From contig JBFXGX010000004.1 of assembly GCA_050177605.1 (NCBI GenBank), positions 1 to 64,000 of the forward strand: a stretch of DNA of 64,000 nt, read 5' to 3'. A program made the translations under genes and the position numbers. Origin of the DNA: Candidatus Izemoplasmatales bacterium (lineage in GTDB: Bacteria; Bacillota_I; Bacilli_A; Izemoplasmatales; Hujiaoplasmataceae). Shown here one piece after another: positions 44,376 through 63,886 of this stretch (position 1 is the first letter of the stretch; each line of letters opens with the position of its first letter). Below the pieces are notes generated by a model. The model ran no database searches. It saw only the letters and a list, made by a program, of their open reading frames with translations, and was not told the origin of the DNA.

Positions 44376-44463
44376 TATCGATAGTGACATAGGTGGCCTG
44401 TTTTTCTAGATATTTTACTTATAATCGAAGATATTGAAAGAGCAGATTAAGGAGAATACTCAG

Positions 44464-45153: not shown

Positions 45154-45755
45154 AGAAATCTAAAACTGAAGAAACAGTTATAGAAGTACTATGGGTTAAA
45201 TTAGTAAGCTATTCGATTTTTACACTTGTATTAGTATTCTTATTAATCTTTGTCCCAAAACAAGTATTCGAGGATAACATGGCTTATACGATGGCTTCGT
45301 CTATGGCGATACCAGACTCATCGAATCTGTTGTTATATGATTATGATGTCTATGCAACAGAAGCGAGATTTACTGAAGGACTCATTGTGGATGTTAATAC
45401 TGTGAAAGCAGAATTTATGGAACGAAGTGAAATTCTTGCGGTGATGATTTGTGGCGATGAATACAAGGTTGAATATAAAGAAGATTATCTTTTTATTGTT
45501 AATCCAGACACACCTGAATTAAATATCGAGTATTACCTAGCAAAAGACCTATCCGTCAATAATATGAATGTGTCCTGTCGTACTTTTATCATGTTATTTG
45601 AAGACATTTCAACTTTAGTCAATACGGTTTATATCGGCGTACTTACACTTTTCTTTGGATTAACATTTATACCTTTTGTAGTAAAACTAACAAGATTGAT
45701 TATTGGATTGAAAATGAAAAACAAGTCGCAAATTGAAGAAATTATCAAAGATTAA
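45150..45755 (+). CDS. Hypothetical 2-TM membrane protein
   Basis: N- and C-terminal TM segments; ATGA overlap with the upstream lipoprotein. Confidence 0.6.
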   Translation: MKKSKTEETVIEVLWVKLVSYSIFTLVLVFLLIFVPKQVFEDNMAYTMASSMAIPDSSNLLLYDYDVYATEARFTEGLIVDVNTVKAEFMERSEILAVMICGDEYKVEYKEDYLFIVNPDTPELNIEYYLAKDLSVNNMNVSCRTFIMLFEDISTLVNTVYIGVLTLFFGLTFIPFVVKLTRLIIGLKMKNKSQIEEIIKD

Positions 45756-45763
45756 TAAAGTAT

Positions 45764-45790
45764 AAAAACCTACATTTTTGTAGGTTTTTT
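45764..45790 (+). terminator. Intrinsic terminator
   Basis: AAAAACCTACA/TGTAGGTTTTT. Confidence 0.8.
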
Positions 45791-45925
45791 GATTGGTTTT
45801 TCTTTGTATTATATTATGGAATTTATTCTATAGATAATCTCTTCTTTTCTATATCCTCTTAATTCATATATTTTCGCAGATTTGTCTGTGATATAATAGG
45901 CTTAAGAAATAGAGGGTGGAAAAAC

Positions 45926-46600
45926 ATGAATCAACTACAGAATATTGATTTTTCTGATGTCAATGAAAGATTAAAACATGTTTACTTTATTAATGGTACA
46001 GCCTATGCAGGAAAATCAACCATATGTAAAATGCTCGCGAAAAACTTTCATATGTTTCTTTGTGAAGAAAACTACCATATGAATGATTTTCTAGAACAAA
46101 CTAATCCTTCAACGCATCCTAACTTGCATTACTTTACAACAATGAGTGGATGGGAAGAATTTGTGACAAGGGATAAATATACCTATGTGAAATGGCTAGA
46201 AGGTACTGCGATTGAAACAACACCATTAGAGATAGAATATTTACTATCCTTACCTAATGATAAATTAGTCATTGTCGATACAAATATCCCTCATGATGTC
46301 TTAATCAAGATAAGCGATCCGAAAAGGATTGCTTATATGGTCACAACTCCAGAAATATCAAGAGATGAATTTTTTAATCGATTGGACAGAGAAAAACAAT
46401 TCTTATTAAGTGTCATAGAAAAAACAGATCATCCAGAGGAGAATCTTCAAAACTATAAAGATATACTCTTATATGCAAATCGACAAGAAGTTATCGATAG
46501 ATTTACAAAATCTGGTATTTTTTATACAATGAGAAAAACAATCGAAGATGATATTTATCAAAAGTATGATCAAATTTGTAAACATTTTGAGTTTATATAA
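45926..46600 (+). CDS. P-loop small-molecule kinase-like protein
   Basis: FINGTAYAGKST Walker A, VIVDT; TGnTATAAT promoter upstream. Confidence 0.65.
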   Translation: MNQLQNIDFSDVNERLKHVYFINGTAYAGKSTICKMLAKNFHMFLCEENYHMNDFLEQTNPSTHPNLHYFTTMSGWEEFVTRDKYTYVKWLEGTAIETTPLEIEYLLSLPNDKLVIVDTNIPHDVLIKISDPKRIAYMVTTPEISRDEFFNRLDREKQFLLSVIEKTDHPEENLQNYKDILLYANRQEVIDRFTKSGIFYTMRKTIEDDIYQKYDQICKHFEFI

Positions 46601-46681: not shown

Positions 46682-48055
46682 TTAAGTCGTTACTGGATTC
46701 TTAGTAGATTGGATTGAAGCTCTAATCTGACGTATTAGAATGTCAATTCCTGCGATGCTAAATAGTAGTATCCCTTCTGCCCGATAGGGAGGTATATTAG
46801 TCACATATATGCTCAGAAGAATAGAAATAACAATAAGAAATATCCAAGCAAACAGAAAACGATATTTATATAAAAAAGAATTTTTAAATTCTGACTGAAC
46901 TATTTTTCTATTTTCTTTTCTGAGGATTTTTAGATAAAGAGTTTCTAAATGAATGATTATAAAATAGAATAGATATAAAAACAAAAATTGATAACCCTCG
47001 ATGGATATTATATAGGCCCCTGTAAATGGATTTATTGGTAAAAACAAATGTTGAATACTACCTATTGATATACTATAAATTCCTGCAATTGCGTCTGAAG
47101 GAGAACTAAATACATTCAAGCCATAATCTTGGAGAAATAAAGCGATTAGTACAGTGATTGATAATATGATAAGAACATCAAAAGGGAGGATTAAAAACCG
47201 TTTATTATGTACATGAATCGCTATCTTATGATAGGCATTTGATATTAAAGATATAGACCAGAGCAAATATGCTATTTCACACACGAAAGCAATAACAATC
47301 GAAATGACATATAAATGATAAAATCTTGTTAAAATGATTGCACTGATGATAATCGTTGGTAGAACAAACATCTTATTGATTTCATTTGGATAAGCTTTAA
47401 ATATAAAGAAAGCAGATGGACTAAGATAAAACAATATAGCAGCATCTCGTTCAAATGGAAAAAGATAAGATTCTAAGTTATAAAGTGGAAAGAATACATC
47501 ATCATAGAGTGTTAGGAAGAATAAATAGAGTCCAATCATAACACTGGTAGGTAGATAGGATACCCATTTCGTTCTATGATACGCTGAAGATAGCGGTTGA
47601 TTGTCTTGCCAAGATTTTGGCAGAACAAGAGCCAAGGATACTCTTGACAAAACTGTGATCAATACACCATATAGCAAGAAGCTTCCATAAATGAGTACAG
47701 ATTTACCTTTGCTAATAGCGAGCACATCACCATATTTGAATCCAACGAATAAAAATAATACGAACGCAAATAGGGTAAACAAATATATAAGCAGTTCAAG
47801 GATGCGTAGTTTACGTATTTCAATGTTGTTTGTAGATGTTGGCTCTGGAATCGTTGGCTCATCCTCGCCCAGAAGCCAAGGTATACTTACATCTAATTCT
47901 TTCGCAATTTGCGGAAGAATATGGATGTCAGGATTTCCTGCGCCTGTTTCCCATTTACTGACGGCTTGTACTGTAACAAATAATTGATCCGCTAGTTGTT
48001 GCTGGGTCAGTTTGAGTGTCTTTCTTTGTAAGGCTATTTTTTCTCCAATGTTCAT
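46682..48055 (-). CDS. XRE-family HTH regulator fused to a polytopic membrane domain
   Basis: LTQQQLADQLFVTVQAVSKWETG..PD then ~10 TM helices. Confidence 0.85.
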   Translation of the reverse strand: MNIGEKIALQRKTLKLTQQQLADQLFVTVQAVSKWETGAGNPDIHILPQIAKELDVSIPWLLGEDEPTIPEPTSTNNIEIRKLRILELLIYLFTLFAFVLFLFVGFKYGDVLAISKGKSVLIYGSFLLYGVLITVLSRVSLALVLPKSWQDNQPLSSAYHRTKWVSYLPTSVMIGLYLFFLTLYDDVFFPLYNLESYLFPFERDAAILFYLSPSAFFIFKAYPNEINKMFVLPTIIISAIILTRFYHLYVISIVIAFVCEIAYLLWSISLISNAYHKIAIHVHNKRFLILPFDVLIILSITVLIALFLQDYGLNVFSSPSDAIAGIYSISIGSIQHLFLPINPFTGAYIISIEGYQFLFLYLFYFIIIHLETLYLKILRKENRKIVQSEFKNSFLYKYRFLFAWIFLIVISILLSIYVTNIPPYRAEGILLFSIAGIDILIRQIRASIQSTKNPVTT

Positions 48056-48499: not shown

Positions 48500-50893
48500 A
48501 TGCTAAGAATAGAAAAAGTAAATAAAACATATAACCAAGGTAAAAGTCGCAAAGAAGCATTATCTAATATTTCCCTAGAACTTAATCATACAGGGATGGT
48601 TTTTATCCTCGGAAAAAGCGGTAGTGGGAAGTCGACATTACTGAATATTATTGGTGGATTGGATTCATTTGATAATGGCGAAATTACTTACTTTGATAGA
48701 AGTCTAGCCAAGATGACAGATCGTGAATTAGATCAATACAGAAATTATGAGATTGGGATGGTATTTCAAGAATTTAATCTTCTTGAGCGCTTTAATGTTT
48801 ATGATAATTTATCATTTTGTCTTGAACTACAACATACCCACCTAAATCAAGATCAATTCATCAATGACGCTCTAGCGAGAGTTAATCTTGACGGTTTTAG
48901 TTCTCGAGATGTTAGGGAGTTGAGCGGGGGAGAAAAACAAAGAGTAGCGATAGCTAGAGCAATTTTGAAAAATCCAAAAATTATTTTAGCCGATGAGCCA
49001 ACCGGGAATCTGGATTCGGAAAATGGTCAAATGATTCTTTCAATCTTAAAGGAGATTTCAAAAACAAAATTAGTTATAGTTGTTACACATGATCTTGAGA
49101 ATGCATTGGCATTTGCGGATAGGATTATTTCAATTAGCGATGGAGTGATTACCAAAGATGAGAAACGTTCTAGTAATGACACTTCAGATTATCTAAAAAT
49201 CGGTAACATTCATGAAATGATTCAAAAACGAGAACATATATCTTTTAAGTACATACTCAATCTAGCTCTTACTAATTTAAAATCAAAAAAAGGAAGAATA
49301 ATCATTACGATATTTTCCTTTGTTCTCTCGTTGTTTCTAATCAATATGGGACTAACCTATATTTTCTTTAACTATGAAAAATCATCTATCAATACGTTTG
49401 AAACCGCTGAATTAAGAGAATATCCTTTATTTAAAACTGATTCAAGTTTAGAAGATGTATACTATCGTTCGTATCAAGATAATGAAATATCTAGTTTGAT
49501 TAATGAGTATCCAGACATCTCCTTCTATAAAAACTATTATAGACCAGTCTATGGCTTTTTTACTTTGGACTATGTATATTCATTCTCTCCATACCAAACC
49601 GATTGTGATGCAGATTTGTTAACGTCTTCAAACGTAATTATCTTGAATTCAAATGCTGCACCAGCTACTTTAATTGATGGACAATACCCGATTGAAACGG
49701 GTGATATAGCGATTACTGATTATACTGCAGAAATGCTAGTAAAATATCATGTGTTTCAAGGTGTTGAGGATATTCATGATTTACTAGGAAAAACGATTAC
49801 TAAAAATAATGAGCTAATGCAAATTACTGGAATATTAGGAACCAATTATCTTGATGAATATTCATCATCGAAAGATTTACAGGAATTGATAGATTCAGGA
49901 TATATGGTATTGCTTAATTCTATATATACTTCTATTTATATGACACAAGACACCTTTGATAGTATTTTTAATACTACAGGCTATATGATTAACACAGTGA
50001 ATGATCATCAGTATAATATTGGTATTGGATCTCCTGAATATAGTATAGATGAGTATACTCTTGTTGGGGATATGCCTATAAAGGAAAACGAAGTCGTAGT
50101 TTCATTGTCAATGCTTAGTAATTACATAGGAAATGAAGTCGTTCCAGGTGACATTACAGGAGATGCAGTTCGTATATCCAATTATATTGGTGAGACAATA
50201 TCAATCAATGAATCTTATTATGGCCTTGGTGAAGAAGAGTACATCATCACAGGAATTATTGATGATTTTAATATGTCGAACAGGGTTCAGCTTGTTTTTA
50301 ACAAAAGTATGTATGAATTCTTAGTCTATCAAAATATGACCAGCGGTATTCAAGTTGCTCTATTTGCCCAAATGAATCAAGATAATGTGAGTTATGATGA
50401 AATAGTCAGATTAACCGAGGATAGGAATGCGGAGCATTATACTGTATATAGTATTCAACTTTATGGATTAAAGGATGTAATGACGAAAACTGGTGGACTA
50501 GTAAGTGGAATTGGTGCCGTTTTAATCATTATTTCAGGCTTTTTGATTTATTCATATATTTCACAATCTATTTATACTAAGCAAAAAGAAATAGGAATTA
50601 TGCGTGCACTTGGTGCAACAAAGAATGAAGTATCAAAAATCTATTTGCTTGAGTCGTTCATAGTCGTCTTAATTTCATATTTGTTATCTATAATTTTAGT
50701 GTATATAGCAGTTCAACTGCAAAATAATTCAATTACTCACTCATGGAATTTATCAATTAGGTTACTATATATTGATTATAAAACAATACTCACAGGATGT
50801 GGTATTGCAATATTAGCATCCCTATTATCTGCATATATTCCAATTAGAAAAATGATCTTATTGACACCGATAACAGCAATCAGAAAAATTTAG
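48500..50893 (+). CDS. Fused ABC transporter ATPase/FtsX-type permease (MacB-like)
   Basis: GKSGSGKST, LSGGEKQR, LADEPTGNLD, KEIGIMRALGA. Confidence 0.9.
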   Translation: MLRIEKVNKTYNQGKSRKEALSNISLELNHTGMVFILGKSGSGKSTLLNIIGGLDSFDNGEITYFDRSLAKMTDRELDQYRNYEIGMVFQEFNLLERFNVYDNLSFCLELQHTHLNQDQFINDALARVNLDGFSSRDVRELSGGEKQRVAIARAILKNPKIILADEPTGNLDSENGQMILSILKEISKTKLVIVVTHDLENALAFADRIISISDGVITKDEKRSSNDTSDYLKIGNIHEMIQKREHISFKYILNLALTNLKSKKGRIIITIFSFVLSLFLINMGLTYIFFNYEKSSINTFETAELREYPLFKTDSSLEDVYYRSYQDNEISSLINEYPDISFYKNYYRPVYGFFTLDYVYSFSPYQTDCDADLLTSSNVIILNSNAAPATLIDGQYPIETGDIAITDYTAEMLVKYHVFQGVEDIHDLLGKTITKNNELMQITGILGTNYLDEYSSSKDLQELIDSGYMVLLNSIYTSIYMTQDTFDSIFNTTGYMINTVNDHQYNIGIGSPEYSIDEYTLVGDMPIKENEVVVSLSMLSNYIGNEVVPGDITGDAVRISNYIGETISINESYYGLGEEEYIITGIIDDFNMSNRVQLVFNKSMYEFLVYQNMTSGIQVALFAQMNQDNVSYDEIVRLTEDRNAEHYTVYSIQLYGLKDVMTKTGGLVSGIGAVLIIISGFLIYSYISQSIYTKQKEIGIMRALGATKNEVSKIYLLESFIVVLISYLLSIILVYIAVQLQNNSITHSWNLSIRLLYIDYKTILTGCGIAILASLLSAYIPIRKMILLTPITAIRKI

Positions 50894-51061: not shown

Positions 51062-53359
51062 ATGATTAAACTAGTGAATGTAACTAAACAATTTAAAACT
51101 AATAAGAAGATTACGACTTTATTTAAAGACGTTACCTATTCATTTCCAGACAAAGGAATTGTCATTCTTCATGGAAAGAGTGGCGTTGGAAAAACAACAC
51201 TACTTAATTTAATCAGCAAATATGACGAATTCTATGAAGGATCAATATTGTTTAAAAATAAGGATATCAGAACTATCAACTCAGATGACTATCGTCTGAA
51301 TCATATTGGATTTATATTTCAAGAATTCTATTTGCTTGATGATTTATCAGTCATAGATAATATTGCCTTATCAGCAGAAATCAAAGGTGTAACAAAAGAA
51401 GCAGCCATTTTAAAAAGTGAGTTGTTACTGAATGAAATGGGTATGCAGGATATTCAACATCAAAAAGTAAATACATTGAGCGGAGGAGAGAAACAAAGAG
51501 TTTCGTTTCTTCGTGCTATGATAAAAGAACCAGATCTCATTATCGCAGATGAACCAACAGGAAATCTTGATGATGATAATACAAAAATGATACTAGAATT
51601 ACTAAAGCGGTATGCTAAAGAACATCTTGTCATCATAGTAACTCATGAATTATCTATTATTGAGCAACTGAATTGTGAAAACATTGAAATAGATGGCATG
51701 AATTTGATAACTACAGAGAAGCATGAATCTTCTCTTGAAAATGATAATATAAAAATAATGAAACCAAAAACGCCAATATCGTTTTTGTTTCATCTAGCTT
51801 TAAACAGTTTTAGAACTATGAAATTCAAATTTGTTATTTCAACCCTTATCCTCTGGTTAAGTTTTGTCCTCTTTGGTTTAGTATTTTATTTAGCGACATA
51901 TCCACAAAATCAGATTGCGGCTAATGCTTATATTGACTCTAACAACCCTTCATTTCGATTGAATCTAGAAACAGACAATTGCGGAATTTCCGAGATTTGG
52001 GGTGGATGCTATGAAGAAAGTTTACCTATTCGAGATAGTGAAATAGAGATGCTTTCTCAAATCAATAAGGATATTTCTATTAATAAGGTAATCCCTAAAC
52101 AAAATATCCAAGTGGCAGTGCAAGATAAATCCGAATTAGATGATTTATATGAATCTATTGTTGTCATAGATCGTAGCGAAAATTCGCTACCGATCTATGT
52201 AGGAAAGTACCCCTCTAGCGAAAATGAGATTCTTTTGACAGATTATCTCTATGACCAATTGTTTCCTGAACGAAATAATACATTCATTCAAAACCTTTCT
52301 GTTGAACTAAATGGTGTAAACTTCATAATCAGTGGGGTAGTGAAAACAAATTATGATCAATATAATTTGCTTTGTTTTAGTGAACCCTATACAGAAGAAC
52401 GGTTCTACACTGATTTCATGTTTAATTTAGGAACTGTTTACATTACTTTGGATGGATTAAGTTATCTTTCAAGAAATACTGTTCAATTTACTGTTCGAAA
52501 TTCAATAGCCCAATTCACACCTAGATTTAATACATTTATCAATGCTTCAACTTTTAATCCAACTATCCTCTACGGAAAAGCACCTGAAAATAGAAATGAA
52601 ATTATATTGCCTACTACAGTAGGAGTTTATAGTGAAGCAGAATATATAAATATGCTTAATACACAAATCACAGTTGAGTTTTCTTTACCAAGCACTTACA
52701 GTTATCCCTATACTGAGGACAAAACCTACACTGTAGTTGGTTTTTATGAACCGGAAGATATTACTGGAATTGTACTACATACTGATGAGTTTTCATCATA
52801 CTTCATCAACTCAGTTGATCCAATTCAAGTTGATGTTATTTTTGATAAGGATGCAAGTTCCCTCACTGATTTTTTAAATGTTGTAAGTGAAAGCAATTAT
52901 AAACATGCAAGCGCAATTTCTCCTTCCCTACATTTTGTAACAGAAGTATTTTCAAGTTTACGCAGTGTACTGCTTGGAATTACGCTGTCATTTTCTTTTC
53001 TTAGTAGTTTTATTTTAATTAGTTATTTCAATAATAGCTTGAAACTAAGAAGAAAAGAAATAGGTGTCCTAAAATCTCTAGGTGTTAGTAGAAATAAAGT
53101 TTCAGTTATCTTCGTTATTGAAGGAATAATCATTTCGATTTCTGCATATTTCCTATCAGTTATCTCTATTGCTTTTATATTTGAACAGGTTAATAATCTT
53201 TTTAATTCTGAATTTGAAACATCCATTAATCTGTTTTCGATAAATGCTTATTTGATTATCTCTATATTTGTTTATGCAGCAATAATTATTTTCATTTCTT
53301 CAATAGCTCCTGTTAGAAAATTACTCAAGTTAAATAGTATTGATATTATCAGGATATGA
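51062..53359 (+). CDS. Fused ABC transporter ATPase/FtsX-type permease (MacB-like)
   Basis: GKSGVGKTT, LSGGEKQR, IADEPTGNLD, KEIGVLKSLG. Confidence 0.9.
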   Translation: MIKLVNVTKQFKTNKKITTLFKDVTYSFPDKGIVILHGKSGVGKTTLLNLISKYDEFYEGSILFKNKDIRTINSDDYRLNHIGFIFQEFYLLDDLSVIDNIALSAEIKGVTKEAAILKSELLLNEMGMQDIQHQKVNTLSGGEKQRVSFLRAMIKEPDLIIADEPTGNLDDDNTKMILELLKRYAKEHLVIIVTHELSIIEQLNCENIEIDGMNLITTEKHESSLENDNIKIMKPKTPISFLFHLALNSFRTMKFKFVISTLILWLSFVLFGLVFYLATYPQNQIAANAYIDSNNPSFRLNLETDNCGISEIWGGCYEESLPIRDSEIEMLSQINKDISINKVIPKQNIQVAVQDKSELDDLYESIVVIDRSENSLPIYVGKYPSSENEILLTDYLYDQLFPERNNTFIQNLSVELNGVNFIISGVVKTNYDQYNLLCFSEPYTEERFYTDFMFNLGTVYITLDGLSYLSRNTVQFTVRNSIAQFTPRFNTFINASTFNPTILYGKAPENRNEIILPTTVGVYSEAEYINMLNTQITVEFSLPSTYSYPYTEDKTYTVVGFYEPEDITGIVLHTDEFSSYFINSVDPIQVDVIFDKDASSLTDFLNVVSESNYKHASAISPSLHFVTEVFSSLRSVLLGITLSFSFLSSFILISYFNNSLKLRRKEIGVLKSLGVSRNKVSVIFVIEGIIISISAYFLSVISIAFIFEQVNNLFNSEFETSINLFSINAYLIISIFVYAAIIIFISSIAPVRKLLKLNSIDIIRI

Positions 53360-53533
53360 TTAAGCGAAATATTACAATGACGATTAAAAATGTGGTGGAT
53401 TAGTTGCATTTGAACCAACTCAAGTGATATTTGTATGAAATATATAATGATATATAGCAAAGTAGGATTGAATCCTCTTTATTTGTCTCATTTTATAATT
53501 AAATTTCAATAATAATCTTTTATTTTATAAAAC

Positions 53534-53699
53534 AATGTATTATGATAGATTAGAAGTCTAGATAAAAGTGCAATTTTATATCAAAATATGGGGATAATCT
53601 TATTCATACCAATTGTATAGTTTTCATTAAGTCTTTAGGGGAAAGATTGATGAACAATATATACAGTTTTTTGTGTTATGAAGAAGATTATTTTTTTAT
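53534..53699 (+). repeat. Copy 2 of the duplicated promoter + long-hairpin leader, directly upstream of the defence cluster
   Basis: Core differs from copy 1 by 4 substitutions and one 2-nt indel; followed by AAGGAGG SD of the MBL gene. Confidence 0.85.
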
Positions 53700-53719
53700 G
53701 TTTATAAGGAGGAAAAGGT

Positions 53720-54820
53720 ATGAATATTTTTGAGTTTCATTCAGTCGGACAAGGTTTATTTTATAGTGGACAAATCGACGGCTACAGATTTGTATACGAT
53801 TGCGGAGCATTATCAACTTTACGGAAAACGCCACCAACAACAAATAATGAACCGGCGCTTTTTAAAGCCATTGATCAATACTCAAACAAAAATGAAGGTA
53901 AATATATTGATTTGTTGGTAGTATCACATTTGGATGCTGACCATGTTAATGGAATTCTAGAATTAGCATCTAGATTAAAAATTAAAAAAGTGGTGTTACC
54001 GTATTTTATGCCAATACTATTACGCTCATTTGTATTTAAGGCATACTTATTGGTATTAGGTTTAGATAGAAATGCGTATGATTATTTCTTGGATGGTTAC
54101 GAAAAAGCAATGTCTGAAAATACAGAAACGAACTCTGATATTATTTTTGAGGATACACAATTTTTTCTTTATCCAACGAAACATTCGGAAGCAGTTGAAA
54201 ACTGGCAATTTGTGTTCCTTAATAATCCATATAATATAAGCCCGACTCAAATACAATCATTAGAGGCGAACATCGTTAAACTTTTGAATGCATATGGAAT
54301 ATCTGATTTGGTTGAAGGTTTTCATGATTTTACATTTATCTCCAATTTAAAAAAAATATTTAAAACAATTTTTTCATATATCAATCAAACAAGTCTAGTC
54401 ATGATTCATTACCCACTTATATATAGAAATGTGTATTATGAGTTTGATTGGTTTTTCGAACGGAAATATCTGTTTTTAAGAAGGGAAACTGAGATTTATC
54501 CTCCTTCTGTAACGATGCTTACAGGAGACATAAATTTTGATAAAACAGGAAGCATGGCTGTAGAAGTCAATGATGAGATTATTTTGAGTAATTTATCTTT
54601 ACAAGTCTGTTCGCTACCTCATCATGGATCATACTATAACTTTATTAGTTTTATTTCCTGCATTAATATTTCCAATAGTAATTTAGTAATGAATTATGGA
54701 CTAAAAAACATTAAGAGTAAGTTTCCCGATTTTCGAACTATCACTGAAATAAACAAAATTCCAAATCGACTAATATATGTATATGAATACAGCAATTATA
54801 TATATGAGATAATCACATAA
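53720..54820 (+). CDS. Metallo-beta-lactamase-fold hydrolase (ComEC/Rec2-like, probable nuclease)
   Basis: HSVGQGLF, YDCG, SHLDADHVNG (HxDxDH), LTGD, PHHGS. Confidence 0.85.
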   Translation: MNIFEFHSVGQGLFYSGQIDGYRFVYDCGALSTLRKTPPTTNNEPALFKAIDQYSNKNEGKYIDLLVVSHLDADHVNGILELASRLKIKKVVLPYFMPILLRSFVFKAYLLVLGLDRNAYDYFLDGYEKAMSENTETNSDIIFEDTQFFLYPTKHSEAVENWQFVFLNNPYNISPTQIQSLEANIVKLLNAYGISDLVEGFHDFTFISNLKKIFKTIFSYINQTSLVMIHYPLIYRNVYYEFDWFFERKYLFLRRETEIYPPSVTMLTGDINFDKTGSMAVEVNDEIILSNLSLQVCSLPHHGSYYNFISFISCINISNSNLVMNYGLKNIKSKFPDFRTITEINKIPNRLIYVYEYSNYIYEIIT

Positions 54821-54895
54821 TAATTAAATGTATGATTGTATAAACATTTATTTGGATTTATGAATTAATGTATATTTTGTAGAGCAGGTGATTCA

Positions 54896-55585
54896 ATGAA
54901 TAAAAACATAAATTCTAAAAAAATAGTAGAACTTGAGTCATTACTAAACCCAAATTATTATTATGTTTTTCGAGCTGATGGAGTTGATTTTAAAGAGTTT
55001 AGAGTGGGGAAACTTGATGCCAATGAGTTAGTCCAGTTAGGAGAGGTATTTCATGAAATCTCAAAATTAGTTTTCAAAACATTTCATTTCGTAAAATTCA
55101 TATATTATTTCGATGATGAAATCAATCTAGCGTTCAAAGGAAATCAAATTGGATTTGGAAGAAGAGTACAGAAAAACCTTTCTATTTTGTCAGCGTATAT
55201 CTCAGTTGAATTTAATAGACTTATATCTTTGACTTCGTTTGACGATAAATTGAAAAGAAAAGGCGAATACTATTTTGACGGAAGATTTGTTGAGATAAAG
55301 AAATATGAAGCACTTATAGATTATTTCGAAAAGGAACAAACAAAAAGCTATGTTCAGGTTAAAAATTTACTTACGCATCGTGGAATGCTAAGTAAGAAAC
55401 CTAGCATTAATTATATTATCGCTAACTATTTAGATGATGAAGATGATTTAAGAAGTTATAAATGTCTATTTGGGTGTTTCCTTTCCAGTAATCTCGAAGA
55501 AAGACATATGATTTCGACTGAAGAAGAACTAATTTTAGATATTACTTCGTTGATTGAAAAATCATTTAGTAAGAAACCCAAATAG
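54896..55585 (+). CDS. Thg1-like (tRNA-His guanylyltransferase / 3'-5' polymerase fold) protein
   Basis: YVFRADGVDF (R-x-D-G), YYFDDEINLAF (D-E-I), GRRVQKNLS, YFDGRFV, in Thg1 order and spacing. Confidence 0.75.
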   Translation: MNKNINSKKIVELESLLNPNYYYVFRADGVDFKEFRVGKLDANELVQLGEVFHEISKLVFKTFHFVKFIYYFDDEINLAFKGNQIGFGRRVQKNLSILSAYISVEFNRLISLTSFDDKLKRKGEYYFDGRFVEIKKYEALIDYFEKEQTKSYVQVKNLLTHRGMLSKKPSINYIIANYLDDEDDLRSYKCLFGCFLSSNLEERHMISTEEELILDITSLIEKSFSKKPK

Positions 55586-55609
55586 TATAGATATATTTCG
55601 GAGGTTTTG

Positions 55610-56053
55610 ATGAGTCATAAAAGTAGATTCAATCAAGAATTGAAAAAATCTGGATTAACACCTATCGGTTTTTTGATAGGCATTGTTGCTTTTGTTATAT
55701 CTGGAGCTTGGGTTATTTTTATTTCTATATTATTTATTCTACTTATATATATTATTGTTAATCATTATATTCAAAACAAGTTGTGCTCTAGTATTATATC
55801 CTACTATATTACTTCTGTTGTTATGTCAATTATGGAACTCTTAATTAATTATTTTCCGAATTCCATAGGCGGAGGATTATTTGAGTCTGGATATATTGTT
55901 GCTGATTTTATCACACTAAGTAGTATAATTGATTGGATTATCAAAATACAAACAGATTCTTGGGGCATTATATATGATTGGATTATTGTAATGTCAGCTG
56001 TTATAGTGACTATCGTGTGTTTAATTATTTCGAAAAATAGGCTAAAAAAATGA
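55610..56053 (+). CDS. Small multi-pass membrane protein
   Basis: 3-4 hydrophobic segments; SD GGAGG; starts 21-24 nt after the Thg1-like gene. Confidence 0.7.
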   Translation: MSHKSRFNQELKKSGLTPIGFLIGIVAFVISGAWVIFISILFILLIYIIVNHYIQNKLCSSIISYYITSVVMSIMELLINYFPNSIGGGLFESGYIVADFITLSSIIDWIIKIQTDSWGIIYDWIIVMSAVIVTIVCLIISKNRLKK

Positions 56054-56208
56054 AGTTGAATTTATAATAATCATTCTATTAATGCGAATTGATATATAGA
56101 TAGATATTTGTTTTTCGGCGTATTTTCTATATGAATGTGTAATAATATGCTTCGTTTTCCAAGAATCAAGGATTAGTTTCGAATAGGATAATATATTTAT
56201 GAAAGGCG

Positions 56209-58977
56209 ATGTTGGCGTTGTTTATAATTCAAGAGGATTCATTTCATAACAAGAGTAAAGAGGAAATTAGCAGATATGTGTATGGATCATACAACAAGTT
56301 TAAGTATATGATTTATTATAACGCTTCATACCTAATCTACAAAAAGAGAATAGTAGAATTTGAAAATGATGGTAAAAAAGAAAGAAAAATTCAAGCGCTA
56401 ATCGATTTTATTTATGGAGATTTATCCGATGAAAATTATATTGATTATCTTCTTGATAGAATCGACTATTATCCAGTTATTAAGAAAGAAACGATAATAA
56501 ACGGATCTAAACATATCGCTTTAAATTACTTTATAGATATTCCTGTTGAACTACATATAATTGATGTTATGTGGACCATAATCAAAGGATTGTCATTCAA
56601 AAATGATGAAATGGAAAAGTTTTGGTACGGTAATTTGTTGAATAAAAAGCAATTATACAAACAAAATGCTCATACTCTCAATGATATATTATGGGAAACG
56701 AATTTTCTATTCAATAAATACATTAAGGATTATAATAAATGGATATCTGAGTCTTTGAAATGCATTAAAAATCAATGCAATATTAATGATGATTTAACGC
56801 TGGTATCTTCTGACTTAAAACGATTTTATTACTCTACGAATTCACCATTTAGAGAATTCCCATCAACTACTTATAACTCAATTATCGAGCCTTATTTGAG
56901 TGCTCTTACAGTAGTTATTGAAAAAATGTATCAAAAATATCATTCTATGATAGCTTCTATATCAAAAATCGACATGGGTGAATGTATCCTTCCCATTGGA
57001 CTAACATCATCAATGTTAATCGCAAACGCATATCTCTCCGATTTTGATGATTCGATTTCAAAACTTGATGATGTAATTTTTTATGGAAGATATGTAGATG
57101 ATATGATAATTATTTTTAAGAAAGAAGTTAAACTAGAAGAAGCGAAGAAATTACTTAAATCACTCCTTGAAGAAAATCAGTATAATGTTTCAATTAATGA
57201 GGAGAAAACTGCTGTTTTTTCTTATCATAATTACAATTTTCTTTCTACCGAAGAACGATTTATTAACTATATAAAAACTAAATCGAATAGTTATGTTGGA
57301 AATGAAGACTTAGAAGAAGTATCATTTGAAAGGTATTTTGAATTCGAAAAAAAATACCTCAACAACAATTTGATTTCTAATTCACAATTATCCGAAGATA
57401 TGTTTGTAAAGATTGACGTACATGATGCAATTATATTTATGAACTATATTTACGATTTGATTGATTTTAGTCATGAAGTTAGAGAAGTTATTTACAATAA
57501 GATCACTACATTTATAAACACCACAACCAAATTTACTATGTGGAAAGAAATTTATAGATGGGTGAACTCATTCCAAATCCAAAATGATAGTGTTTTAGAA
57601 ATTGAAAAACTATTGCAGGAAAGATTCAAGAATATGATTGAAAACAATATTGAAGAAATTAATGCCGTCTTTTCAGATAATGTTCATAAGAAACTTATGA
57701 GTACATATGAGGAAATTAATGAGATATCAAAAATACTAGCTCGAGTTGAAGAAAACACACCTTATGCAAGGGCATTTGAATTATCAGGAATGTGTAGAAA
57801 AGACAGTATTATCAAACATCTGGTAATCAATTATAGAGAAAATAAGAAACTATTCAATAATTCGACTGAGTATTATAAGGATTACTATGGAAATTATTTA
57901 CCTTTTATTCACCTATGGGAAGTCGTACTTTTTGACCAGTTAGTGAATTTATCTAAGAAGAACCATAAATCTTATCAAGAATCAGTGCGAACATTTACCG
58001 AGTTAAACCATATTAATGAATTTGATAATATCTATTTTGCTAAATCTATAGAGATGGATAATCTGAATGGAGACGTGATTGTTATCGGTGATCAACAAAA
58101 AATGAATTCTTTTGTTGTTAGTCATCCTAATATTAATCTAGATTCTGATGAGTTCATTCCTTTATCAAAACATCATGTAATACCTAGCACTACTGACACA
58201 AGACTGTTTATAAGGAATTTACTCGACTCATTTGAAAATAATACTAGTACACTGGTATTACCAGAATTATATGTAAAGTTAGAATGGTTGCCTATCGTTG
58301 CCAGAATAGCTCATCATAAAGAATTTAACGTGTCGATGGGTGTTGAAAATCTAGTGTTAGGGCGTCGGTTTTACAATGTAATGATTTCGTTGTATTCTTT
58401 TAGGGATTCATTTTCTCATAGAAACCTTTTTCCAATAGTGCGTGAGAAGAACTTTTATTCATATATTGAACAGGAATGGTGCGATCAACCTTCAGTTAAG
58501 CTTATATGTAGAAATCCATCTACTCCGAAGTACTATCTTGTGAAAAATAAAGGTATTTCATTTGTGGATTATCTATGCTTTGAGATAACGGATATATTTT
58601 CGAGAGCCTTATTCAAAGGGATGGCTGATGTCACTATCTTGCCAATGTTAAATAGAGATACTACCTATTTTGATAACATAATTCAATCTCTTAGTAGAGA
58701 TTTATCTTGTTGTGTTATTACATCAAATTCTGCAACATGGGGTAATTCATCAATCATTCTTCCGAGATCGTCTCATGAAAAAGTGTTAACTGATTTTAAA
58801 GGAGGATTTAATAACTATCTTGTATCTTCTCTTTTACCAGTTTATGAATTAATAAATTTTAATAATAGTTTTTATTGGAAGAATAAAAATATTCCATTTA
58901 AGAAACATCCAGCAAATTATAATCATATATCAATCGACTCACATGAGAAAGAGGATTATAAATTGGATTGGGAGTAG
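56209..58977 (+). CDS. Reverse transcriptase fused to a C-terminal nitrilase (C-N hydrolase) domain; DRT1-like defence RT
   Basis: RT motifs DLKRFYYS (~56812), LPIGLTSS, YGRYVDD (57091-57102); nitrilase triad LPE (58264), REK (58447), LCFE (58576). Confidence 0.88.
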   Translation: MLALFIIQEDSFHNKSKEEISRYVYGSYNKFKYMIYYNASYLIYKKRIVEFENDGKKERKIQALIDFIYGDLSDENYIDYLLDRIDYYPVIKKETIINGSKHIALNYFIDIPVELHIIDVMWTIIKGLSFKNDEMEKFWYGNLLNKKQLYKQNAHTLNDILWETNFLFNKYIKDYNKWISESLKCIKNQCNINDDLTLVSSDLKRFYYSTNSPFREFPSTTYNSIIEPYLSALTVVIEKMYQKYHSMIASISKIDMGECILPIGLTSSMLIANAYLSDFDDSISKLDDVIFYGRYVDDMIIIFKKEVKLEEAKKLLKSLLEENQYNVSINEEKTAVFSYHNYNFLSTEERFINYIKTKSNSYVGNEDLEEVSFERYFEFEKKYLNNNLISNSQLSEDMFVKIDVHDAIIFMNYIYDLIDFSHEVREVIYNKITTFINTTTKFTMWKEIYRWVNSFQIQNDSVLEIEKLLQERFKNMIENNIEEINAVFSDNVHKKLMSTYEEINEISKILARVEENTPYARAFELSGMCRKDSIIKHLVINYRENKKLFNNSTEYYKDYYGNYLPFIHLWEVVLFDQLVNLSKKNHKSYQESVRTFTELNHINEFDNIYFAKSIEMDNLNGDVIVIGDQQKMNSFVVSHPNINLDSDEFIPLSKHHVIPSTTDTRLFIRNLLDSFENNTSTLVLPELYVKLEWLPIVARIAHHKEFNVSMGVENLVLGRRFYNVMISLYSFRDSFSHRNLFPIVREKNFYSYIEQEWCDQPSVKLICRNPSTPKYYLVKNKGISFVDYLCFEITDIFSRALFKGMADVTILPMLNRDTTYFDNIIQSLSRDLSCCVITSNSATWGNSSIILPRSSHEKVLTDFKGGFNNYLVSSLLPVYELINFNNSFYWKNKNIPFKKHPANYNHISIDSHEKEDYKLDWE

Positions 58978-59328
58978 TTATTTGATAAATTCCTATTTTG
59001 AACATAACATTCAAACAAATTTCTTTCATTATATTCACAATTCCGTCTGAGAGTATATATTTCCTATTTCAAGATAAGTACCAAAAAGATGTTTGCGTTG
59101 TCGAAAAATCATTCTGATAAACGTCCCATTTATCCGGTAAATTCTCAGTATAATTTGTTTATAATAGATATGGGATTTAGCAACAAAGCAATTATATTAT
59201 TATTCGCACATATATTAGACTATAGTTAATGTAGTTACAATCTAGTTAATTAATGAAATTAATAGTGAGGTTTAATTATTGCAAAATATCTATAGCGTTA
59301 TAATCATAGAAATATGGAGAAGAGAAAA

Positions 59329-61371
59329 ATGAAAATCGAGAAGATTGAACTAAAGAACTACAGACTTATGCAAAATACTAGTCTTCGTTTAGAGGATTTG
59401 GAGACTGTAATTGTAGGAAAAAACAATACTGGAAAGACTTCTTTAATGTCTTTTTTGCATCTAATAACTGGAGACAAATCAAAAACTTTTCTATTTGATG
59501 ATTACCCGGTTCCCTATAGAAATAGTATTTATGACTTTATACTTACTATAGATTTATTATCTCTTGATGATAATGAAGTCAGAAAAGTTTTTAAAGAACC
59601 GGAATTGCGAATAGAAATTGATTATAGTGATTTTGATGAAAATTCATCTTTGGGTGGATTGAGACCATTTGTAATTGATTTGGAAGAGACAGTTAAGAAA
59701 ACAATTGTGCTTGCTAGATATGATTATATTTTACCGATTACTTCATTACTGTTGATGATTAAAAATATTAGAATACAAAAAGAGTATATTGAAGGTGATG
59801 AAAGTGTAAAAAGGACAATTATCCGTGAACGAATATCATCGTATTTTCCAAATTTTTACAAACTAAATATTTATGCAGTTAATCCGATGACTGAGACAGA
59901 TATTCAATTAAAAACACAAGAAGACTTAAAGAACCTTCTTTCAATCTACTTTGTAAGAGCAGAAAGAGCTATGGATGAATCCGATCAAGGGAATAATAAG
60001 CAACTTGAAAAACTCTTGGATAGAATATTCAGTCCATTAACTGAACTTGATGAAGTAGATGAAACTGATACAACGCCTGAAGGAATCAAAAGAGCAGAAA
60101 TTTTTCGGATGCGAAGCGGAATACAAGAAATGGTTTCAAGCTTTAATTCTGATATAAATGAAAAAATAGATATTAAAATGGTAGAACTAATAAAAAAATC
60201 AATCGGATTTGGATATCCAGACAGTGAAGAAATATCACTTTCTGCAAAGTCTAACATACATATTGATGATTTAATTCGAAGAAATACTGACCTTTGGTAT
60301 GTAGACCCATTAACAAATGAAGTATTACCTAGTTCATTGAACGGGTTAGGATATAAAAATTTGTTGAAAATCGAGTTTGAATTAGTAAACTATTTTCAAA
60401 CAGTTGAAAACGACAAAGAAGGGCGACTTTATTTGCTTTTTATTGAAGAACCTGAATCACATATGCATCCACAGCTTCAACAAAAATTCGTTTCTTTTTT
60501 ATCTGAATTTTTAAAAGGACTGTCATCCAAAAAAATTCAGGTGATTTTGACTACACATTCTTCTCATATTGTCAATCAAGTCAAATTTTCAAGCATAAGA
60601 TATGCAAAAAAAACCGGTCTGTCATTAGAATTAAAGGATTTCAAAGAATTCAGCACAGATAATCCTGATAATGCTGAGTTTATTCAAAAATATTTAACAC
60701 TATATAGATGCGACTTATTTTTCGCGGATAAAGCAATATTATTCGAAGGATCATCCGAACGAATATTAATACCTGAAGTCATTAGAAGACTAGCCCAAAA
60801 CAATAAATTTGTTGGTACTAGTGTGCCACTCGACAGACAATATATATCACTTATTGAAGTTGGTGGCGCATATGCTTATCTATTCTTTGAATTTCTTAAA
60901 TTCCTTGAACTACCATCTTTAATTATTACTGATATTGATTCGATTGATAGTGAACGAAAAAAGTGTGTTGTTAGCGAGGGGGTGTCTTCTTCAAATGCAA
61001 CAATAAAAAAATGGTTTGAACTATATATAAATCCAGATGATAGATCCAAAGATGAAACTTCTTTAGCTAAGATAATAGAACTATCTGAGGACGAAAAAAC
61101 TCAAGGTAACATTCATATAACATATCAAACTGAGGAGAACTCTATCATTGCAAGAAGTTTAGAGGAGTCAATAATCAATATTAATAGAGTTTACTTTAAA
61201 TGCTCACCAGATTCCAATGAAGAAGAAATCAAATGCAAAAATTCATCTAAAATCGATTTTGCATTGAATCTCATATTTGATAACCCCAATTTTGTCATTC
61301 CTCATTACATTGAAAGTGGGTTGACTTGGCTAAATAGTGCAAATAAAAGTGAGGTTATTCATCGTGAATAA
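59329..61371 (+). CDS. gajA: OLD-family ATP-dependent nuclease (ABC ATPase + TOPRIM), GajA-like
   Basis: IVGKNNTGKT, GLGY, IEEPESHMHPQ, TTHSSH, FEGSSE, TDID. Confidence 0.85.
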   Translation: MKIEKIELKNYRLMQNTSLRLEDLETVIVGKNNTGKTSLMSFLHLITGDKSKTFLFDDYPVPYRNSIYDFILTIDLLSLDDNEVRKVFKEPELRIEIDYSDFDENSSLGGLRPFVIDLEETVKKTIVLARYDYILPITSLLLMIKNIRIQKEYIEGDESVKRTIIRERISSYFPNFYKLNIYAVNPMTETDIQLKTQEDLKNLLSIYFVRAERAMDESDQGNNKQLEKLLDRIFSPLTELDEVDETDTTPEGIKRAEIFRMRSGIQEMVSSFNSDINEKIDIKMVELIKKSIGFGYPDSEEISLSAKSNIHIDDLIRRNTDLWYVDPLTNEVLPSSLNGLGYKNLLKIEFELVNYFQTVENDKEGRLYLLFIEEPESHMHPQLQQKFVSFLSEFLKGLSSKKIQVILTTHSSHIVNQVKFSSIRYAKKTGLSLELKDFKEFSTDNPDNAEFIQKYLTLYRCDLFFADKAILFEGSSERILIPEVIRRLAQNNKFVGTSVPLDRQYISLIEVGGAYAYLFFEFLKFLELPSLIITDIDSIDSERKKCVVSEGVSSSNATIKKWFELYINPDDRSKDETSLAKIIELSEDEKTQGNIHITYQTEENSIIARSLEESIININRVYFKCSPDSNEEEIKCKNSSKIDFALNLIFDNPNFVIPHYIESGLTWLNSANKSEVIHRE

Positions 61372-63070
61372 TAGAAAATTAGCAATAGAAGAAGCTAATA
61401 AGATTGATTTTGAAATAATCGAGGCTCTACAAAAGGGTTCGCATTTTAGGGTTGACGCTGGGGCTGGTAGTGGAAAAACATATTCATTAATTAGAGCTGT
61501 TGAGTGGCTACAGGAAAATAAATGGAATGAGTTCAATAGAATGAATCAAAAGGTTGCATGTATCACTTATACGAATGCAGCAGTAGATGTAATTCGAAGT
61601 CGTTTAAAAAATGATTCATTCATCATACCATCAACAATTCATTCATTTGTCTGGGAAGCAATGAAGCAGTTTCAAATTGATTTACTTAGAAATGCAAAGG
61701 AGATTTTGATTGATAAAGATTACATAGATTTTAATTATGTAAAAAAAATAGAATATACATTAGGAAAAAGATATCAAGATGGTGATACTCTATATTTATT
61801 CCATGATGATGTAATTAAGTTATTCGTTATATTAATTGATAAGCCAAAATTTAGAACGATATTAAGTAATCAATATCCTATAATTCTGATTGATGAATAC
61901 CAAGATTCATTTAAATCTATCGTAGATAAATTTGTTGAGTATTTCATTGAAAACAAGTCTACACCTCAATTTGGATTTTTTGGTGATTCTTGGCAAACCA
62001 TTTATCAAATGCAAGGAGCTGTTGGTGAGATTAATAGCGATAATATAGTCATAATTCAAAAGAAATCAAACTTTCGCTCTGCAAGCAAAATTGTAGAAAT
62101 GCTTAATAGAATAAGACCGGAATTACAACAAATAACCGCTGAAGACAATTATGAAGGAAGTACTACAATAATTGATTGCAGTGATTATAAGGGTAGTAGA
62201 ATTCAGGGTGGACTGTTTTCAAATGATTTGCCAAACGACGTACTAATGGAGCGTATAGAGAATTTAGAAAATGTACTGTATAGAGACTTAACTAAAACCT
62301 GTAAGACTTTATTTTTAACACATCGAATAATTGCCAGTAATGAAGGTTACCCTGACTTGTTAAATCTTTTTGATGATGGTTTTAAAGACAAAACAGATGC
62401 TTTTTTGCTCTTTTTTATGGAGAAAGTTGAACTTATTGTCAGTGGTTTAGAACAGGGATTAACACAACAAATTTTTGATGTCTTAGGTTTAAAGCAATAT
62501 CCTATTAACGCGATTTCTGATAAGAAAAAATGGTATAAATTTAAAGATGACATATTTACAAGCAGAAATAAAAAAGTTATCGATGTACTAGATTCAATTA
62601 ATAACAGTGGATTGCTTACATTTCCGGAAGAGATTGAAAAAATATATAGTAATTATCCAAAAAATAATGAAGAACCCTACAGAAATGGGTCAATAGGTAA
62701 ATTAATGAATCTAGATTATTCACAGATATTAGCTGCAATCTCTTATCATAAACCAAACTCACTAGTGTCAACAAATCATGGTGTTAAAGGCGAAGAATAC
62801 GATAATGTAATTTTTGTTGTCAGCAAAGGTTGGAATAACTACAATTTTGATAAGTATCTACCAATGAGCCAAAAAGAACAAAAAGATAATTATGAATCAT
62901 ACAAAAGAAATAGAAACTTGTTTTATGTTTGCTGCTCTAGAGCTAAGTCAAATTTCATCATGTTCATAACATACCCCGTGTCAAATGGGTTTAAAGAATA
63001 TTTGACTAATTTGGTAGGTATCAATAACTACATGAGTTATGATCAATATATTAAACAGAATAATGCTTAA
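61364..63070 (+). CDS. gajB: UvrD-like SF1 helicase, GajB-like
   Basis: AGAGSGKT, TYTNAA, STIHSF, IDEYQD, GDSWQTIY, NFRS, HGVKGEEY, NLFYVCCSRA; GTG start after GAGG overlaps the gajA stop. Confidence 0.85.
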   Translation: MNNRKLAIEEANKIDFEIIEALQKGSHFRVDAGAGSGKTYSLIRAVEWLQENKWNEFNRMNQKVACITYTNAAVDVIRSRLKNDSFIIPSTIHSFVWEAMKQFQIDLLRNAKEILIDKDYIDFNYVKKIEYTLGKRYQDGDTLYLFHDDVIKLFVILIDKPKFRTILSNQYPIILIDEYQDSFKSIVDKFVEYFIENKSTPQFGFFGDSWQTIYQMQGAVGEINSDNIVIIQKKSNFRSASKIVEMLNRIRPELQQITAEDNYEGSTTIIDCSDYKGSRIQGGLFSNDLPNDVLMERIENLENVLYRDLTKTCKTLFLTHRIIASNEGYPDLLNLFDDGFKDKTDAFLLFFMEKVELIVSGLEQGLTQQIFDVLGLKQYPINAISDKKKWYKFKDDIFTSRNKKVIDVLDSINNSGLLTFPEEIEKIYSNYPKNNEEPYRNGSIGKLMNLDYSQILAAISYHKPNSLVSTNHGVKGEEYDNVIFVVSKGWNNYNFDKYLPMSQKEQKDNYESYKRNRNLFYVCCSRAKSNFIMFITYPVSNGFKEYLTNLVGINNYMSYDQYIKQNNA

Positions 63071-63448
63071 ATAGCGATTTATTATGTTATTCTGAAACAA
63101 GGGTTATTCACTTGTTTATTTGTAAAGTTGTGTTAAATGTAGATTTCAGTTGTAGTTATATATTTTCTTTGTTCGGTTCTATACTGACAATATTATTTTA
63201 AGGAATAGAGCCTTTTTTATTACGAATCTTGAAATATGTCTCTATCATTGCTGATTATTCTGAAAATTAACAAATGTCTTCTCTTTGAAAAAAATCGGAA
63301 TTCAGATATTATGATATATGCGCAATTATAGTGAATTAATTACTCAACCTCAAAGATAGATTCTTAAGGAACAAGAATTTGAACAATACAAGTAATTATT
63401 TCGTATGCAGGTTAAATAGATTTGCTTTAATCAGGGGGTATTCAATTG

Positions 63449-63886
63449 ATGAAAAAGGAAGATGTAGAGAAGAAAATAGAACAATTATGTTCTTTCATAG
63501 GAACACGTATTAATAAAAATTTGGCTACAACAGCCATAACTTGTTCTGGTTATGCTGCTGAACATAATATTCCTAGTCAAGACTCGTTAGCAATTGTTGG
63601 AGATCATGTTATAAAATTGTTAATTTCTTCGTCAAATTACAAAAAAACGCCTGTTATATCGAAAGAGAAACTACATCAAGCCGTAGATAAAAATGGACAA
63701 AATGAATTTTTGGAAAAAATAGGACAAGAGCAAAATATTGATAAATTTCTACTATATATAAACACTGATCTAGAAGGCAAAAAGAAAAGAGCTACATCTC
63801 TTGAAGCTATTATTGGCGCTGTTTATCTATCAAAGGGAAGCAAAGCAGTTGAAAAATTAGCACATAAGTTAAAAATACTTGAATAG
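63449..63886 (+). CDS. Stand-alone RNase III domain protein (Mini-III-like, no dsRBD)
   Basis: QDSLAIVGDHVIKL and ATSLEAIIGAVY signature segments; 146 aa. Confidence 0.78.
   Translation: MKKEDVEKKIEQLCSFIGTRINKNLATTAITCSGYAAEHNIPSQDSLAIVGDHVIKLLISSSNYKKTPVISKEKLHQAVDKNGQNEFLEKIGQEQNIDKFLLYINTDLEGKKKRATSLEAIIGAVYLSKGSKAVEKLAHKLKILE

Follow-up and report, generated by a model that had tools for sequence, protein, structure and literature searches.

Do four consecutive genes of the Candidatus Izemoplasmatales bacterium assembly GCA_050177605.1, which encode a metallo-beta-lactamase (MBL)-fold hydrolase, a Thg1-like protein, a small transmembrane (TM) protein and a reverse transcriptase (RT) fused to a nitrilase, constitute one system or several? 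The block lies within positions 1 to 64,000 of contig JBFXGX010000004.1 (hereafter, the window) and is followed by a Gabija pair. A reading based on the letters alone (hereafter, the sequence-only reading) had considered it either an expanded DRT1 with two nucleotide polymerases of opposite direction or a separate MBL–Thg1–TM unit in front of an RT system. The best reading of our results is that the block forms the 5' edge of a one-strand defence island that exceeds 25 kb, and not a single four-gene system. The RT-nitrilase belongs to a known anti-phage family as an ordinary, stand-alone member; the upstream trio looks like a separate cassette. We assign a probability of about 60% to this arrangement of an independent RT-nitrilase and a separate trio, stacked as independent modules in a defence island.

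The 922-residue RT-nitrilase is a UG5-large protein, that is, a class 3 UG/Abi RT, as assigned from hidden Markov model (HMM) scores. In PADLOC, the RT_UG5-nitrilase models matched with E-values of 1.8e-100 and 1.2e-56, followed by RT_UG5_small (4.3e-28) and Drt1a (3.2e-22), and RTasNitrilase matched residues 663–905 (6.9e-16). Pfam RVT_1 was found at 8.7e-12, and Pfam CN_hydrolase gave no match to the chain. The YVDD motif of the RT (residues 295–298) and the nitrilase triad (E686, K747 and C790) are invariant in all eight members of the clade. The features of UG5-large, namely YxDD, a fused C-terminal CN-hydrolase with Glu-Lys-Cys and a best score against a UG5 profile, were therefore all found. 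The nearest solved structure is DRT1 (9yfd; E = 6.4e-21), in an alignment that spans the RT and the region of the nitrilase cysteine. Membership of DRT1 (UG1) was nevertheless rejected on account of the Drt1a score, which is far inferior to that of the UG5 profile, and of the chain length, compared with 1200–1300 residues in DRT1. Orthologues with 35–54% identity were found in Izemoplasmatales, Tenericutes and Acholeplasma records, and this low-GC clade is 21–35% identical to the sampled metagenome UG5-like RTs.

Described UG5-large systems may include a TM protein of clusters 85/1858, which is encoded downstream in 31 of 299 members (PMC9226505), and the "RT-nitrilase + TM" system of Escherichia coli E101 is cited there as UG5-large. 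This optional partner was not found in the window, where gajA follows the RT and the upstream TM protein has no match to the RTasTM or Drt1b models at E ≤ 0.1. The sequence-only reading had taken an RT-nitrilase with a small TM partner for the DRT1 architecture; this pairing holds equally for UG5-large (PMC9226505), but here the TM gene lies upstream and its product matches no model of such partners. As positive controls, the RTasTM and Drt1b models matched the downstream TM proteins of two related loci, L099 (5e-164) and L101 (Drt1b, 1.6e-58). Class 3 RT-nitrilases are reported to act as single proteins (PMC13436386; PMC13275509): RT and nitrilase suffice for protection in DRT11, a UG5-large system from Sinorhizobium meliloti (PMC13436386), and Drt1b is dispensable in DRT1 (PMC13275509).

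Conservation of the neighbourhood was assessed in 89 related RT loci. They comprised 80 metagenome loci, namely the top-ranking ones among 331 relatives confirmed with an alignment of the eight closest RTs, six viral loci (of 55, the other 49, which matched the RT motif region only, being left out) and three genome loci (L015–L017). Flanks of at least 2.5 kb were present upstream of the RT in 57 of the 86 metagenome and viral loci and downstream in 48. Scanning all open reading frames (ORFs) of at least 50 residues with an HMM of the Thg1-like clade revealed a Thg1-like ORF in none of the 89 loci. Likewise, Pfam found no Thg1 among 118 co-directional neighbours of up to 560 residues, selected from 181 listed after larger ones and those of L015–L017 had been dropped. 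Orthologues of the RT were present in nine genomes, two among the 158 of the order (G025, 54% identity; G021, 43%) and seven more among the 399 scored of a phylum sample (G119, G239, G363, G082, G381, G193 and G275). A Thg1-like match was found in none of the nine, and the retrieved flanks of their RTs contained no match to the Thg1-like, MBL or TM protein. Within these 89 loci and nine genomes, the three upstream genes thus showed no conserved association with the RT. The sequence-only reading had named co-occurrence of the homologues as its own check, and those of the RT and the Thg1-like protein were not found together in any of these loci and genomes; its expanded DRT1 with two opposed polymerases is not supported.

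Other genes did recur near related RTs. Pfam Lactamase_B was found among the neighbours in three loci. Two of these are gut contigs of one lineage (L049 and L050) with the order MBL, 117-residue ORF and RT, in which the MBL gene of L049 is split; in a further locus of this RT lineage (L046), genes for a kinase and other proteins separate the RT from a weak MBL match that lies some 9 kb upstream. In the third (L081), the order is RT, TM and MBL, followed by a 1419-residue protein matching Avs2/Avs1b models. The MBL of this locus matched the LmuA and Avs1a models at 1.5e-54 and 8e-36 and belongs to an Avs-type pair, since the Avs2/Avs1b-like protein follows it. The locus thus has an apparent Avs1-type pair directly behind an RT and TM pair.

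The remaining RT neighbours were ordinary island content, including type I restriction-modification, BREX BrxL, DarT/Macro, SIR2, AbiE and toxin-antitoxin genes. The RTs of G025 and G021 are accompanied by HsdM-HsdS-HsdR and by a PD-(D/E)xK-like protein of 251–253 residues (L015:15070-15831 and L016:9911-10666), whose two copies are 76% identical and match RTasPDDEXK weakly (1e-6). Its gene lies on different sides of the RT in the two genomes, downstream in one and upstream in the other, with type I restriction-modification genes adjoining both times, and may be a clade-specific accessory gene of the RT. In G119, a ThsB-like TIR gene overlaps by 4 nucleotides (nt) a gene for a 148-residue TM protein directly upstream of the orthologous RT (L207:9849-10897), and a NERD protein is also encoded nearby. 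This TIR and TM pair, the PADLOC candidate PDC-M50B/A, occupies the position of the Thg1-like and TM genes of the window. The two TM proteins have no similarity, and that of G119 belongs to PDC-M50. An FRG/PDC-S15 protein (G363), GmrSD (G239) and housekeeping genes (G082) were found beside other orthologues. Separately, a 235-residue protein without Pfam match at E ≤ 0.001 is encoded in G002 (L017:13978-14685), beside a 1025-residue RT and a QueC-like/TatD pair (Qat-like); its resemblance to a nucleotide-cyclase-like palm motif was noted by eye only.

All four ORFs of the block are present on the plus strand, as the sequence-only reading had stated (Table 1). Their co-orientation is uninformative, because all 17 successive genes between position 48500 and about 81.5 kb on the contig lie on that strand. 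The block genes have GC contents of 27–31%, and a Shine-Dalgarno-like purine-rich stretch precedes every start codon. The intergenic gaps amount to 75, 21 and 155 nt, so that the earlier values stood for the outer two and the middle one, given as about 24 nt, was corrected. No terminator-like hairpin was predicted between the four genes, in agreement with the sequence-only reading, and the sole plus-strand site in the block (55661–55680) falls within the TM ORF. A dedicated promoter and hairpin leader upstream of the MBL gene had also been proposed and is unsupported, since fold, promoter counts and Rfam were all null. Folding of the leader was no better than that of shuffles (z = -1.2; 14 of 100 shuffles at least as stable), and a structured element was rejected. 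Promoter-like sites occurred at the chance rate (74 observed vs 74.8 expected), and an Rfam scan of 44–64 kb gave no match, with nothing in the leader at E ≤ 1. One AT-rich palindrome is all that it contains.

Table 1. Features of the window and of related loci that are discussed in the text.
Feature	Position	Strand or direction	Remarks
MBL-fold hydrolase gene	53720-54820	+	366 aa
Thg1-like gene	54896-55585	+	229 aa
Small membrane-protein (TM) gene	55607-56053	+	148 aa; 147 aa if the start is ATG 55610
RT-nitrilase gene	56209-58977	+	922 aa
Leader 5' of the MBL gene	53360-53719	+	Intergenic, 360 nt; no demonstrable structured element
Gabija	gajA 59314-61371; gajB 61337-63070	+	Separate neighbouring system
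MBL, 117-aa ORF and UG5-like RT-nitrilase	L049:8554-12982; L050:8556-12982		Gut metagenome
UG5-like RT-nitrilase, 223-aa multi-TM, MBL and 1419-aa Avs2/Avs1b-like STAND	L081:9920-19167	One direction	Metagenome

The Thg1-like ORF encodes a true, divergent member of the Thg1-fold family, that is, of the 3'-5' nucleotidyltransferase fold. It matched Pfam Thg1 at 2.3e-14 with 53.9 bits, against a gathering cut-off of 29.2, and contains the motifs RADG (residues 26–29), DDE (73–75) and FDGR (127–130). Its AlphaFold2 model had a pLDDT of 85 and a pTM of 0.83, and all 32 Foldseek matches in the PDB at E ≤ 0.001 were Thg1 or Thg1-like protein (TLP) chains, with TM-scores of about 0.6–0.67. The metal-binding carboxylates D28, D74 and E75 and the DxR of strand 4 (D128-x-R130) are conserved: D28, G29 and D74 do not vary across 35 sequences, at least 90% of which also keep E75, K93, D128 and R130. 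The C-terminal region diverges from canonical TLPs, with YFEKEQ in place of the YFxxRQ consensus. No PADLOC model matched the protein, and full-text literature searches found no defence role for the Thg1 family.

Relatives of this protein are scarce. A word-indexed search of 5.8 billion proteins returned only four, with 51–66% identity, and a profile search of 1.84 billion representatives returned 73 at E ≤ 1e-3, 11 at ≤ 1e-10 and four at ≤ 1e-30. The contigs of the four closest homologues measure 9542, 6827, 5550 and 2031 bp, and none of these sizes recurs among the longest contigs of 60 MBL- or 54 RT-homologue clusters, an indirect sign that they carry neither an MBL nor an RT. No homologue was found in plasmids and phages by tblastn, none was confirmed in viral and metagenome contigs by an alignment scan, and a scan of genome contigs gave one weak match of 48 residues (L001). 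None of four same-genus genomes has the gene, which is accordingly accessory. More distant relatives were found in three further genomes of the order, with no MBL or RT nearby. That of G494 (32% identity) is a lone gene, that of G045 has two small hydrophobic ORFs directly upstream, and that of G492, on a 2.8-kb contig, has small hydrophobic ORFs downstream. The contexts of the distant Thg1 matches in G045, G256 and G201 are unrelated to the block. A common neighbourhood of Thg1-like and mini-RNase III genes in G494 and the window was set aside as a probable coincidence, the mini-III proteins being 24% identical (E = 1e-4).

The first gene of the block encodes a ComEC-type MBL-fold hydrolase, which is probably a nuclease or phosphodiesterase. 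It contains HLDADH at residues 70–75 and PHHG at 300–303, and all 38 aligned relatives share the metal ligands H70, D74, H75, D270, H301 and H302. The canonical histidine at position 72 is replaced by aspartate in 11 of these relatives and retained in 27, which makes HxDxDH a natural variant of HxHxDH. The match to Pfam Lactamase_B (4.4e-4) was under the gathering cut-off. PADLOC gave RTasMBL (7.8e-13), LmuA (2.5e-12), PDC-M48B (8.9e-9) and Avs1a (3.6e-5), in matches that span just the N-terminal 50–60 residues. The best PDB match of the AlphaFold2 model (pLDDT 80) was the beta-lactamase-like domain of ComEC (9ic4; E = 7.9e-11); next came Pce esterase, RNase J and RNase Z. The nearest homologues are only about 30% identical. 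A phylum-wide profile search found no full-length relative, and hence no context; its matches were mostly C-terminal, in frames of about 700 residues that we read as ComEC-type proteins. Motifs were thus found in the MBL, the Thg1-like protein, the RT and the nitrilase, and the catalytic-looking residues of the three enzymes are intact, as had been read from the letters.

Between the Thg1-like and RT genes lies an ORF for an orphan small membrane protein with about four predicted hydrophobic segments. The hydrophobic regions according to Kyte-Doolittle (residues 14–57, 62–80 and 118–146) cover most of the chain. Its gene follows the Thg1-like gene after 21 nt, with GGAGG 7 nt 5' of ATG 55610. 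No match was found in Pfam and PADLOC even at E = 0.1, the RTasTM/Drt1b models included, and no similarity to the ORFs of 89 + 7 RT loci. The ESM Atlas yielded sub-threshold leads only (scores ≤ 0.84; structural TM-score < 0.5).

According to the stacked-module arrangement, a first module would be the single-gene UG5-large RT-nitrilase and a second one Gabija. The mechanism of the RT may be carried over from DRT1 by homology. According to PMC13275509, adducts drive a dormant filament in DRT1 and the nitrilase is the effector; DNA is reported to be covalently primed on protein in class 3 RTs, and the priming residue of DRT1, Ser402, is not conserved across other class 3 DRTs. By analogy, a covalent DNA adduct on the RT would keep an oligomer poised, and the nitrilase domain would serve as an abortive-infection effector on infection. 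The upstream trio of ComEC-type MBL, divergent Thg1-like nucleotidyltransferase and orphan four-TM protein would be a separate, very rare cassette. Our guess for its function is that the Thg1-like enzyme would sense or modify via RNA 5' ends or nucleoside triphosphates, with the MBL nuclease and the membrane protein as damaging or regulating parts. Such a cassette would resemble defence pairs of a small enzyme and a small TM protein, for instance the TIR and TM pair PDC-M50 in G119. The alternative form of the sequence-only reading, a separate MBL–Thg1–TM unit before the RT system, is compatible with all results and is preferred here. The trio is an unclassified candidate from a single locus.

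Several points weigh against this arrangement. The spacing, together with the lack of a predicted terminator, would allow a single transcript over the four genes, and joint working of the MBL, Thg1-like and TM proteins would be suggested by spacing in this one locus only. A defence-type MBL of the same broad kind recurs near the UG5-like RTs of L049, L050 and L081. A gene for a 148-residue TM protein lies directly upstream of the RT in two of the eight clade loci, those of the window and G119, which makes a clade-specific upstream TM partner possible. Moreover, an MBL or RT that had diverged, or had been cut by a contig end, beside the closest Thg1-like homologues would escape the comparison of contig sizes.

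Among the other explanations, the three upstream genes may be unrelated accessory genes lying side by side at the island edge with no joint function, which we consider unlikely. This is consistent with the finding of no conserved pair, with MBL relatives that are about 30% identical and share no contig size with the Thg1 homologues, with the lone Thg1-like gene of G494, and with the one strand common to all genes here. It fits less well with the 21-nt gap between the Thg1-like and TM genes and its Shine-Dalgarno sequence, with the 75-nt gap after the MBL gene, and with the occurrence of small hydrophobic ORFs beside the Thg1-like genes of G045 and G492 as well.

A second, rather improbable explanation is that the MBL and the Thg1-like protein make up a module that trims and rebuilds RNA (tRNA) 5' ends, the TM protein being incidental. 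Such a module would act in repair and not as an immune effector, and would be retained in a conflict island for mending RNA damaged by phage or toxin nucleases. Bacterial Thg1-like proteins are described in PMC2904730 as tRNA 5'-end repair enzymes, with polynucleotide kinase, Macro and RNA ligase as known operon partners; the window protein retains the fold and the catalytic residues, and the MBL model has RNase J and RNase Z among its structural matches, albeit as weaker ones than ComEC. However, Pfam found no kinase, ligase or Macro gene in the block, and the C-terminal "finger" region of the Thg1-like protein deviates from the consensus. Furthermore, the best MBL matches are the DNA-uptake nuclease domain of ComEC and MBLs of defence systems, and the distant Thg1-like relatives of G494, G045 and G492 have no MBL nearby.

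It is about equally doubtful that the Thg1-like and TM proteins, possibly with the MBL as a third component, make up a new anti-phage system for which a "reverse-direction" palm enzyme of the Thg1 family was recruited to immunity. The recruited enzyme might tag the 5' ends of RNA from phage or host, or lengthen them. Another option, by analogy with its cousins mCpol, Cas10 and GGDEF, is that it synthesizes a nucleotide signal by which the membrane protein is gated, the MBL then serving as a nuclease effector or as a regulator that degrades the signal.

Finally, one integrated, expanded UG5 system, in which the RT would have the TM protein as its membrane partner and its product would be processed or regulated by the Thg1-like and MBL proteins, is highly improbable: the tight spacing without predicted terminator, the TM partners known for UG5-large and DRT1 (PMC9226505; PMC13275509), the RTasMBL match and the MBL gene that precedes the UG5-like RT of L049 and L050 by two genes are offset by the lack of a Thg1-like gene in the 89 related RT loci and the nine RT-bearing genomes, by a TM protein that fits no RT-associated model and lies upstream although known partners sit downstream (PMC9226505), by an RTasMBL model that is defined for UG9 rather than UG5 (PMC9226505) and matches over only about 50 residues, and by the protein-primed DNA reported for class 3 RTs (PMC13275509), whose 5' end would be on protein and not free for a 3'-5' polymerase, which argues against extension of the RT product by the Thg1-like enzyme. 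The tempting notion that a single system unites two opposed polymerases is unsupported and has been dropped.

The preferred arrangement of stacked modules agrees with the surroundings of the block. The downstream pair noted in the sequence-only reading is Gabija: PADLOC assigned GajA at 7e-177 and GajB at 1.9e-175, the genes overlap by 35 nt, and Pfam found AAA_15 and OLD-like_TOPRIM in GajA and UvrD-helicase in GajB. Taken together, the sequence-only reading was right about the ORFs, the motifs and Gabija, and its leader and its integrated DRT1 are not supported. Past Gabija, the island contains a mini-RNase III-like protein of 146 residues (window 63446-63886). It continues beyond the window on contig C4 (L214:1404-18485) with a 193-residue ORF, a radical SAM protein (280 residues), an AAA_11/AAA_12 helicase (855 residues), a 475-residue ORF, a 1612-residue DEAD + UvrD double helicase and an SNF2-DUF4391-N6_N4 methylase set. 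On the other side of the block, five successive plus-strand ORFs (374, 303, 239, 201 and 224 residues; 42121-46600) and a minus-strand ORF of 993 residues (38754-41735) have no Pfam match at E ≤ 1e-5. They are flanked by genes for fused ABC-ATPase/FtsX permeases (35968-38400, 48500-50893 and 51062-53359) and for a helix-turn-helix protein (46682-48055). For the flanking ABC-FtsX and mini-RNase III genes, the genomes G001–G004 contain only paralogues with 24–39% identity and no close orthologues, so that same-genus synteny gave no island boundaries.

The modules were compared with known systems. The MBL shares an N-terminal GQG...YDCG, SH.(H/D).DH and a C-terminal PHHG with ComEC and with the defence MBLs of Avs1a, UG9 (RTasMBL) and LmuA (PDLC03854). 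It differs from the MBL pairs of Avs type 1 and UG9 in that a Thg1-like gene follows it instead of a protease-STAND or protease-RT partner, which places it outside these systems. The Thg1-like protein has the same fold as bacterial TLPs such as that of Bacillus thuringiensis (4kgm/4kgk; TM-score of about 0.63–0.66) and the same metal-binding carboxylates. However, it is 15–18% identical to solved Thg1/TLP chains, its C-terminal region has diverged, and it is encoded beside an MBL and a TM protein in an island, not beside the kinase, ligase or Macro genes mentioned in PMC2904730. A Thg1-fold enzyme with an apparently intact catalytic site, as judged from its residues, and about ten relatives in 1.84 billion representatives thus stands between a defence-type MBL and a small TM protein within a dense defence island; should the cassette restrict phage, the Thg1 family would be given a part in defence for the first time in the literature searched.

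The order of a small nucleotide enzyme followed by a small TM protein is also that of PDC-M50 and of Panoptes, with its mCpol synthase OptS and TM effector OptE (PMC12657218); the same source notes that the palms of mCpol, Cas10 and GGDEF were earlier unified with that of Thg1. Nevertheless, the enzyme of the window has the Thg1 fold, with no mCpol or Cas10 chain among its PDB matches at E ≤ 0.001, and the TM protein, whose length leaves no space for a soluble sensor domain of any size, has no match to PDC-M50A or any other model. The resemblance to Panoptes and PDC-M50 is therefore an analogy of layout and not membership. The RT has the class 3 RT-nitrilase organization in common with DRT1 of Klebsiella pneumoniae (UG1; 9yfd; PMC13275509), and the alignment of the two covers the RT palm and the surroundings of the catalytic nitrilase cysteine, but DRT1 has 1229 residues and the Drt1a HMM scores far below that of UG5. 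With the UG5-large systems (PMC9226505), including DRT11 (PMC13436386), it shares a YVDD RT, a C-terminal CN-hydrolase with an E-K-C triad, a length of about 900–1000 residues and a location in a defence island; it differs in lacking the downstream TM protein of the described clusters, the upstream one being unrelated to RTasTM/Drt1b. The RT is accordingly filed as UG5-large from a low-GC clade of Izemoplasmatales and Acholeplasma-like bacteria, which could aid the comparison of class 3 RT-nitrilases.

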